From NCBI GenBank assembly GCA_964016885.1, contig OZ024744.1:32798001-32862000 (forward strand): a stretch of DNA of 64,000 bases. Reading direction: 5' to 3'. Source of the stretch: Eledone cirrhosa (taxonomy: Eukaryota). The position numbers and the translations under genes are program-made. The notes beneath the pieces were generated by a model, which did not search any database, was not told the DNA's origin, and saw only the letters and a program-made list of their open reading frames with translations. Of the stretch, positions 13,034 through 14,135 are shown in pieces (position 1 is the first letter of the stretch; each line of letters starts with the position of its first letter).

Positions 13034-14135
13034 TAAACGGAAAAAATGAAACGAAATTTCATTTCCCACTCTTAGTATGGCTGTTACTTAAATATAAGTA
13101 TGTACACGTACATATATATATGTATACAGATGTACAGTAGTATGTATATATATACATACACACGCATATATATGTACGTATGGATTCACCGAACATTTAT
13201 TATAATGCTCGGTGTGTTTGTAAACAAACATCCCGTATTAAGCCGTAGTGTTAGCAACCATCGTTGTTCGTTTGTTCACCACTGACAAAGGAACGCTGTA
13301 CTAGTTTCAAGCTTATTAGCTATCGTCAGCAACGTATACCTTCCTGCCAGATTGTTGAACGGATATACTTACCTTATGCATATTAATGGCTGAGTAGCCC
13401 AATTTGCATATCGAGTGGGTTAATCGGCCGGGTGCACCGAAAACGATAAACGGAAAAAATGAAATGAAATTTCATTTTCCACTCTTAGTACGGCTGTTAC
13501 TTAAATATAAGTATGTACACGTACATATATATATGTATACAGATGTACAGTAGTATGTATATATATATACATACATGCACACACATATATATGTGCGTAT
13601 GGATTCACCGAAGATTTATTATAATGCTCGGTGTGTTTGTAAACAAACATCCCGTATTAAGCTGTAGTGTCTAGCAACCATCGTTGCTCGTTTGTTCAAC
13701 ACTGACAAAGGAACGCTGTACTAGTTTCAAGCTGGGTTAATCGGCCGGTAAAATCGATATGCAAATTGGGCTTCTCAGCCGTTAATATGCATAAGGTAAG
13801 TATATACGTTCAACAATCTGGCAGGAAGGTATACGTTGCTGACGATAGCTAATAAGCTTGAAACTAGTACAGCGTTCCTTTGTCAGTGTTGAACAAACGA
13901 ACAACGATGGTTGCTGGACGCTACGGCTTAATACGGGATGTTTGTTTACAAACACACCGAGCATTATAATAAATACGTACATATATATATATGTGTGCAT
14001 GTATGTATATATATATATATATATACATACTACTGTACGTCTGTATACATATATGTATGTACGTGTACATACTTATATTTAAGTAACAGCCGTACTAAGA
14101 GTGGGAAATGAAATTTCGCTTCATTTTTTCCGTTT
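13034..14135. mobile_element. Retrozyme-like HHR unit: 413-bp monomer, partial tandem copy, then inverted copy
   Basis: TAAACGGAAAAAATGAAA at 13034 and 13447. Inversion at ~13745. HHRs at 13293..13335 (-) and 13833..13875 (+). (TA)n on both sides. Confidence 0.9.
13833..13875 (+). ncRNA. Minimal type I hammerhead ribozyme
   Basis: ACGTTG-CTGACGA-TAGCT(AATA)AGCTT-GAAA-CTAG-TA-CAGCGT. Confidence 0.88.

Follow-up and report, generated by a model that had tools for sequence, protein, structure and literature searches.

Hammerhead-bearing retrozyme units of Eledone cirrhosa with a U6-type promoter module and a candidate Neptune-type Penelope-like partner

What is the non-coding repeat whose end joins its own start, and which then turns into an inverted copy of itself between TA tracts, at positions 13034-14135 of the Eledone cirrhosa DNA analysed here, and which enzyme could have put it there? 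The analysed stretch (the window) comprises 64,000 nucleotides of contig OZ024744.1 (assembly GCA_964016885.1, positions 32,798,001 to 32,862,000 of the forward strand). In the accessible parts of the literature, the transcription of animal retrozymes and the enzyme that inserts them are open questions, and circular RNAs and Penelope-like elements (PLEs) are put forward as hypotheses. Our reading, to which we assign a probability of roughly 0.6, is that the repeat is a non-autonomous, protein-free retrozyme that would be transcribed from a U6-type promoter, released as a monomer by a hammerhead ribozyme (HHR), likely converted into a circle, and inserted into (TA)n tracts by a Neptune-type PLE.

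A preliminary description of the window had placed the monomer at 13034-14135, 8305-9320 and 2876-3788, with a fragment near 56645, and it is present in all four places (the third from 2876 and the fragment at 56642-56873). As had also been described, the end of the monomer joins its own start before an inverted copy follows in TA-rich DNA; the arms lie 5′-to-5′ and both end in (TA)n. The ribozyme of the head-to-tail arms reads on the minus strand, and q positions are numbered along the unit read in the HHR sense. At 13034-14135, which lies between (TA)n tracts, the minus arm (13733 to 13036) joins a partial unit (q136-413) to a complete unit of 413 nt in head-to-tail order, and the plus arm (13754 to 14134) covers q35-413. 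At 8305-9320, the minus arm (8849 to 8306) and the plus arm (8939 to 9319) are separated at the inversion point by an approximately 80-nt SINE-like piece. The unit of the third locus measures 466 nt, and its two arms are 99.8% alike. The fragment is genuine monomer sequence (q144-360) that stops inside the HHR, and so it is without an intact ribozyme. The parts are as follows.

13036..13448, minus strand: full 413-nt retrozyme unit of subfamily A1 (1,546 first-look candidates genome-wide)
13449..13733, minus strand: A1 unit lacking its 5′ part (present: q136-413), in head-to-tail order with the full one
13754..14134, plus strand: inverted arm, A1 unit q35-413
13293..13335, minus strand: type I hammerhead with palindromic helix III and U-U closing helix II; predicted cleavage at 13299/13298, after GUA
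13833..13875, plus strand: type I hammerhead of the inverted A1 arm
13399..13410, minus strand: element that includes the octamer and corresponds to the one at -77 in host U6, U6atac, MRP and tRNA-Sec genes
13361..13370, minus strand: TATA-like element, 41 nt past the octamer (host spacing 45-47)
13039..13048, minus strand: T6 run after the terminal hairpin, at the unit end; putative Pol III terminator
13758..13807, plus strand: octamer and TATA module of the inverted A1 arm
12916..13035, no strand: (TA)60 target tract, common to the 3′ end of a Neptune-type PLE
8306..8849, minus strand: A2 arm, truncated unit plus a unit ending at the internal (tail-less) site
8517-8559 and 8635-8646, minus strand: HHR and octamer, respectively, of the A2 minus arm
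8939..9319, plus strand: inverted A2 arm; HHR at 9010-9052, with a helix I mismatch
2876..3379, minus strand: family B arm, full 466-nt unit (2876-3341) plus a 38-nt piece
3169-3211, 3295-3306 and 3257-3266, minus strand: HHR, octamer and TATA-like element, respectively, of the family B minus arm
3351..3788, plus strand: inverted family B arm, ending at internal site q400; HHR at 3519-3561
56642..56873, minus strand: 5′-truncated A-type fragment, q144-360, no complete HHR
3791..6945, plus strand: 5′-truncated Neptune-type PLE with RT and GIY-YIG at 4106-5706 and an inverted 3′ copy; candidate partner family

The longest ATG-initiated ORF on the circularised unit encodes 20-73 amino acids, and the arrays consist of unit repeats only, with no LTR architecture. 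The piece exactly at the A2 inversion junction (8852-8930) belongs to a common SINE-like repeat that also interrupts three U6 promoters, and possibly reflects template switching. An 18-nt TA-derived minisatellite, based on GACTACATG, flanks the A2 locus on both sides (8072-8298 and 9329-9480). Elsewhere in the window, positions 17880-32240 hold a cluster of tandem LINEs with AP endonuclease-RT frames and a proline-rich ORF1, which we take, from their motifs, to be L1/Tx1-like.

Six HHRs of the window carry GAAACTAGT, with ACTAGT as the palindrome of helix III. The HHR pattern has 30,328 exact matches in the genome and 0 for the reversed control, so the motif is not due to chance. The ribozyme had been described as a minimal type I hammerhead with an ACTAGT stem III; its type and its palindrome stand, but it is not minimal, since a 6-bp helix I with a bulge and a helix II of 4-5 bp make up the canonical metazoan type I geometry. 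The two forms are distinguished here as defined in the accessible text of PMC4209133, the minimal form having a long helix II and a short helix I. A covariance-model search with Rfam, proposed in the preliminary description, recovers a similarity to HH9 that remains below the gathering score of 52 in both families (38.9 bits for B, 18.8 bits for A); among the matches listed from the window-wide scan (150 of 204), nearly all are miRNA noise from TA repeats and two are HH9. In family A, to which most copies belong, the base of helix II (10.1-11.1) is U-U instead of G-C in 10 of 12 aligned sequences. The covariation of stem I claimed between copies is real at the level of subfamilies. In a sample of 12 hand-picked units, one stem I position is occupied by UG (4), GU (3), AU (2), UA (2) or another pair (1), and two-sided changes affect 6 of 25 named pairs, a figure reached by 2 of 500 shuffles in a comparison that the kinship of the sequences inflates. 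The predicted folds of the unit have z-scores of -6.8 and -13.0, none of 100 shuffles being equally stable. Self-cleavage of unit transcripts is predicted.

Units are 413-484 nt long and form arrays of up to about 20. Approximately 36,000 exact HHR-core matches are found genome-wide (30,328 + 5,639), the smaller number coming from a second HHR pattern (4 matches in its control) that is dominated by a further B-type HHR with a compensated helix II; the family-B pattern, with approximately 3,081 matches, is a subset of the 30,328. Estimated from unit length, these ~36,000 intact-core units make up roughly 0.5% of the 3.0-Gb genome. Of the at least two diverged families proposed, A and B belong to one superfamily, with 61% identity end to end over 474 columns. 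Family B arrays are 99-100% alike across chromosomes and have therefore moved recently. On every feature that can be tested in sequence, the units are members of the metazoan non-LTR retrozymes.

At least four further families combine the promoter module with an HHR (L254-L279, here D; L259, here E; L357-L376), with differing helix III palindromes and one U3-A8 core variant. A separate HHR repeat, with a long helix II and a TA-palindromic helix III, is found at 7015-7155, 7450-7765 and 55720-55990. Its 1,106 first-look candidates show variable 5′ truncation and two 3′ ends, no tandem array was found in 15 loci, and the repeat probably represents either a further PLE's 3′ end or a non-autonomous element of short length.

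How could such a unit be transcribed? Upstream of the HHR, A and B units hold a 12-mer that includes the octamer and, after it, a TATA-like box. The host has the same 12-mer at -76 to -79, with GTATA at -31/-32, in 7 of the 7 type-3 Pol III promoters presumed to be functional, i.e., those of three U6 genes, U6atac, RNase MRP and both tRNA-Sec genes, the last checked after construction of the matrix. Left out of this count are nine U6 and five of six U6atac matches without a promoter, which are apparent retrocopies, and three U6 array copies with a SINE between element and gene. The octamer element is found upstream of U1 in 0 of 6 loci and upstream of U2 in 0 of 13. On this ground, the type-3 reading was adopted and a snRNA-type Pol II promoter, as in newt, was rejected. 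The host genes show further regularities: U1 and U2 share an ATCAGT-type motif near -58 (L061-L072, L120, L300-L307), the octamer element lies at -77 in the type-3 genes (L073-L075, L126, L132, L308-L309), and most genes of both groups have a TTACCTCCC-type distal motif near -260. Inspection of the units by eye found no such distal element at the matching place, and a tRNA-type B box is likewise absent from them.

The matrix derived from host genes scores higher in A1, A2 and B than in 300 of 300 shuffles, the permitted spacing having been relaxed to 38-50 so that these units could be scored. Genome-wide, the module motif alone gives 25,072 matches against 53 in controls; among the first 100 listed, 93 are A-type and 7 come from two further repeats, both of which bear an HHR and one of which shows U3-A8 core covariation. 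Family D does not resemble A or B in any meaningful way (the local score against A is 17, with a shuffle maximum of 14, and lies in the TA-rich part). Combining the module with the start of the HHR core detects more families, including an old one with decayed HHRs and the host spacing of 45-46; the strict HHR rule is passed by 4 of 20 fetched loci. Octamer and TATA are 41-42 nt apart in A, B and D, 50 in E and 45-46 in the old family, compared with 45-47 in host genes. The octamer C is invariant, and its pairing partner is broken in 5 of 12 sequences. Runs of T5-T7 are found at unit ends in A, B and D, and runs of T4-T5 also occur internally. Loss of the octamer across a whole subfamily, suspected from one locus, turned out to be private to one array.

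It could also be argued that the module is a Pol II promoter or enhancer, or a structural relic, and that the RNA stems from Pol II or from read-through, as reviews assume. The spacing of A, B and D is 4-5 nt below that of all seven host promoters, the module lies within a predicted hairpin, T-runs would block the production of multimers, newt satellite 2 is reported to have a snRNA-type Pol II promoter (cited in PMC2220036), and retrozymes seem to be promoter-less according to the accessible text of a review (PMC7761336). However, within the same genome, the element matches the Pol III type-3 genes and not U1 or U2; it is kept even where pairing is lost, the module persists in families that otherwise resemble one another little or not at all, and the old family has exactly the host spacing. 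We therefore consider such an origin of the RNA somewhat unlikely, and retain the type-3 reading.

A record of the RNA itself may be preserved in the arrays. Strand-asymmetric, clustered A>G changes agree with A-to-I editing of RNA. On the HHR strand of young family B arrays, near-private changes shared by a whole array comprise 21 A>G and 1 T>C, distributed over 9 and 1, respectively, of 101 arrays (112 loci), whereas changes in individual units number 47 in each direction (Fisher p=2e-4), A and T being equally frequent in the unit. Eight of the 21 A>G changes come from L298, an array of a poorly sampled subfamily, and 12 against 1 remain without L298 and L476, both of that subfamily. Array-wide A>G is absent from family A1 (0 in 32 arrays). 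Many loci were obtained through similarity-ranked searches, which disfavour edited copies. Since 12 of 17 A>G sites are predicted to be paired, close to the background of 66%, pairing adds nothing to the case for editing. Many of the changes are located upstream of the predicted transcription start, hence the promoter segment, or the whole unit, was RNA. In one 20-unit array with two arms, 16 of the 16 delimited units are letter-identical and carry A37G, A41G and A42G, which cluster in the octamer hairpin and are missing, or all but missing, from the rest of the sample. The presence of A>G in every unit of both arms would fit the repeated copying of one edited monomer. Among arrays of 11-20 units, letter identity across both arms is found at L377 (16 of 16) and L464 (11 of 11). 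Such uniform, apparently edited arrays would lend indirect genomic support to a unit RNA that may accumulate as a circle.

The same element and the same PLE partner could nevertheless work with linear, uncleaved multimers as templates, long arrays being formed by later DNA duplication and no circle being involved. For an anole PLE in vitro, HHR cleavage is dispensable for insertion and uncleaved, unprocessed RNA is the main substrate of the PLE protein (accessible text of PMC11167929), which weakens the case for circles. In addition, 293 of 331 arms hold only one or two units, and helix II closure is weak in family A. Recurring variant patterns in L125, L229 and L282 reflect DNA-level amplification; L125 is a four-unit higher-order repeat of family A, and at L281 whole two-arm insertions are locally duplicated. 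Because older arrays show such DNA-level duplication, array length was rejected as proof of rolling-circle copying. A 495-nt contig that wraps round the unit was also set aside as evidence for a circle, as a tandem DNA repeat gives the same result. Yet identical two-arm arrays of 11-20 units would need either very fast, symmetric amplification of DNA or identical editing of each unit, and covariation of the HHR helices extends over the subfamilies. A fixed 5′ end of the templates is also rejected by the 5′ ends of insertions: of 276 such ends, which are scattered, 3 coincide with the cleavage site and 4 with the predicted start, where 5.3 are expected in each case. Linear multimers without a circle are thus unlikely, and a circular template remains part of the preferred reading.

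The insertions themselves point to the machinery of PLEs. The 3′ ends, 326 in number and drawn from 165 loci, concentrate at two places: 146 coincide with the unit end and 99 with a single internal site, about 44-71 nt before the unit end; 22 more 3′ ends, of A3, fall at the internal site on a short reference. Divergent (5′-to-5′) arms are found in 69 of 121 loci, and the targets are TA tracts. The same pair of ends in (TA)n is seen in two Neptune-type families of this genome. According to the accessible text of PMC11167929, the protein of a PLE introduces nicks into both strands of AT-rich DNA and begins reverse transcription at two internal sites, thereby making a 'tail' that is described there as unique to PLEs; PMC8557442, also seen in part, describes the tandem and inverted layout of PLEs and ties a CX2-5CxxC linker to microsatellite targeting in Neptune. 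By this comparison, the two-site 3′ ends of the retrozyme match the PLE tail. The units have these features of a PLE-mobilised element: two fixed 3′ ends, 5′ truncation, inverted arms and a microsatellite target. Tail length does not discriminate between candidate partners, and TTCCGTTT, which is found near the ends of both A and a Neptune family, occupies non-equivalent positions.

Could the loci then be truncated insertions of an autonomous PLE, and the unit its pLTR (3′ terminal repeat)? The unit's ends, targets and inversions are the same as those of PLEs, Xenopus retrozymes resemble pLTRs in the accessible text of bioRxiv 10.64898/2026.07.22.740005, and the sample covers approximately 250 loci among tens of thousands of units, with four PLE proteins as probes. 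In arrays of up to about 20, however, the unit end joins its own start. Whether the monomer is ever attached to a PLE ORF, a question raised in the preliminary description, was checked in 221 loci, 51 of them taken in genome order: an ORF-then-unit fusion is present in 0 of 221, with no sense-strand ORF fusion lacking a TA tract. A PLE match lies somewhere in 39 of the 221 loci, and those within 700 nt are TA-separated or opposite in direction. The monomer resembles none of the termini of the window's four PLE families. The HHR of the unit is canonical, and the sole partner-type HHR found, in the 3′ UTR of the Neptune family P3, has a different, minimal form. A pLTR identity is accordingly very improbable, while remote ancestry of the unit from a pLTR is possible.

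The PLE at 59361-63993 had been singled out for its partial tandem and inversion. Both are present (59357-63996), but the element is not supported as the relevant partner. It has no sequence in common with the monomers; together with the PLE near 50617 and P3, it was rejected as a parent for want of sequence similarity to the units. The copies at 59357-63996 and 49736-52058 have inverted ends, and the first contains a long frame with one stop at about 61144. A scan of the 59357-63996 copy found no standard HHR.

The preferred reading places the enzyme elsewhere in the window. The proposal that the units are copied in trans by a PLE enzyme gains support from the two-site 3′ ends, the 0 of 221 pLTR fusions, the A>G bias and chimeras with a Neptune-type element. 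In two-arm chimeras at L228 (A), L288 (B) and L478 (B), the other arm belongs to the Neptune family of 3791-6945; at L256, a D-family unit is joined directly to this same family. The chimeras are few, which speaks against the reading: by rule, a PLE arm lies 5′-to-5′ to a retrozyme arm in 2 of 245 monomer-selected loci, one (L478) was found with a targeted pattern starting from a loose contig end, and one further case was found by eye. Both rule-based chimeras involve the 3791-6945 family and none the other three PLE families; their layout is one TA tract and one arm per RNA, with outer ends at the normal initiation sites. The partner family is young, with at least about 100 matches at 96-99% identity, many of which have 784-codon frames (RT, GIY-YIG). 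The monomers have no significant sequence similarity to this proposed partner and share no 3′ sequence with it, and the link consequently rests on the chimeras. Another young Neptune family, P3, frequently lies next to units and could serve as well, with one close case (L251) in which a short TA run lies between the two; for this reason, the 3791-6945 family is named as a likely partner, i.e., it is likely to mobilise the retrozyme. The designation of the two families as Neptune-type is based on the CX2-5CxxC linker and not on a tree. Intact copies of P3 (9550-12915; L250, L194-L217) have a 1217-codon frame and, within their 3′ UTR, a minimal HHR; in the window, an insertion at about 11075-12530 interrupts the copy. 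In the candidate partner PLE (L108:5799-7164, 7097-9449), an upstream 455-codon frame overlaps the RT-EN frame, which is unusual for single-ORF PLEs, and this upstream frame has no Pfam match.

A satellite spread at the DNA level, or a MITE-like repeat, whose resemblance to a ribozyme is fortuitous and which has no RNA stage, is extremely improbable. Palindromic loci, tandem arrays and some DNA-level amplification speak for it; against it stand the fixed 3′ ends with scattered 5′ ends, the strand-asymmetric A>G, the compensatory HHR changes in several families and the chimeras with a retroelement.

Altogether, these observations suggest a life cycle for a unit in which a Pol III type-3-like octamer and TATA module is followed by the HHR and then by a hairpin and T-run. 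Pol III-like transcription would begin upstream of the HHR core, by approximately 8-30 nt, and at times continue into the next unit. The two HHRs of such a read-through transcript could pair via their palindromic helix III and thereby free a monomer with the promoter inside it, which would then be ligated, likely into a circle. ADAR-type editing of the template may precede rolling-circle copying of a single molecule, the PLE protein nicking both strands and priming cDNA internally at the two fixed sites. Older long arrays have also grown by duplication of DNA. Several points weigh against this scheme. The spacing of the putative module, 41-42, differs from the 45-47 of the host, and with runs of T5-T7 closing the unit, Pol III would read through inefficiently. 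Besides, cleavage in vitro is described for one of nine Xenopus retrozyme dimers in the accessible text of bioRxiv 10.64898/2026.07.22.740005. The most specific form of the proposal, in which retrozymes with a captured U6-type promoter pass through an ADAR-edited circle that an unrelated Neptune PLE copies by rolling circle, with 20-unit arrays preserving such molecules, is therefore advanced only tentatively.

The class and its PLE link are already published: in the accessible texts, PMC7229834 documents circles by northern blot in coral, mussel and axolotl and puts PLEs forward as candidates, and bioRxiv 10.64898/2026.07.22.740005 argues for a pLTR origin of vertebrate retrozymes. As far as these sources describe them, metazoan non-LTR retrozymes are, like the units here, ORF-less tandem repeats of a few hundred nucleotides, highly self-paired, with one canonical type I HHR per unit, and they co-occur with PLEs. 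The E. cirrhosa units differ from them in the U6-type module, the PLE two-site ends, the inversions, the A>G bias and the chimeras with one family. Unlike the Xenopus retrozymes, they have no homology to a partner PLE pLTR, and whereas the circles of PMC7229834 were documented by northern blot, theirs are predicted. Newt satellite 2 and schistosome Sm-alpha are also described as HHR tandem repeats in which a promoter inside one unit drives the next; the former promoter is reported to be snRNA-type Pol II and the latter Pol III and SINE-like, whereas the module here is an upstream type-3 (U6) one. Neptune and Poseidon PLEs and their pLTRs, as described in parts of PMC4209133, PMC8557442 and PMC11167929, share partial tandems, inverted 5′-truncated arms, an optional two-site tail, TA-microsatellite targets and a palindromic HHR helix III with the units, which in contrast lack an RT/EN ORF, have a canonical instead of a minimal HHR and repeat alone. 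The Chlamys non-autonomous PLEs such as MRC1 (PMC8557442, in part) are likewise non-coding, multicopy, head-to-tail and PLE-moved; in general they share 3′ sequence with an autonomous family and most are without a canonical HHR, neither of which applies to the units here. A promoter module, an A>G bias or PLE chimeras of retrozymes were not found described in the open-access literature, covered mostly at the level of titles and listings, and the words ribozyme and retrozyme are absent from the accessible part of PMC13282606. What appears to be new beyond the published class is thus the promoter module, the editing-like record and a named PLE partner.

The family offers a named promoter module, arrays that resemble fossils of single edited RNAs, and an intact ORF in a young Neptune element. 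Its ~36,000 units would supply structured RNA in large amounts and, scattered over the genome, many octamer and TATA sites. If the circular scheme is true, the arrays would provide direct genomic proof of the hypothesised circular intermediate, and the promoter, the intermediate and the enzyme of an animal retrozyme would be identified together.
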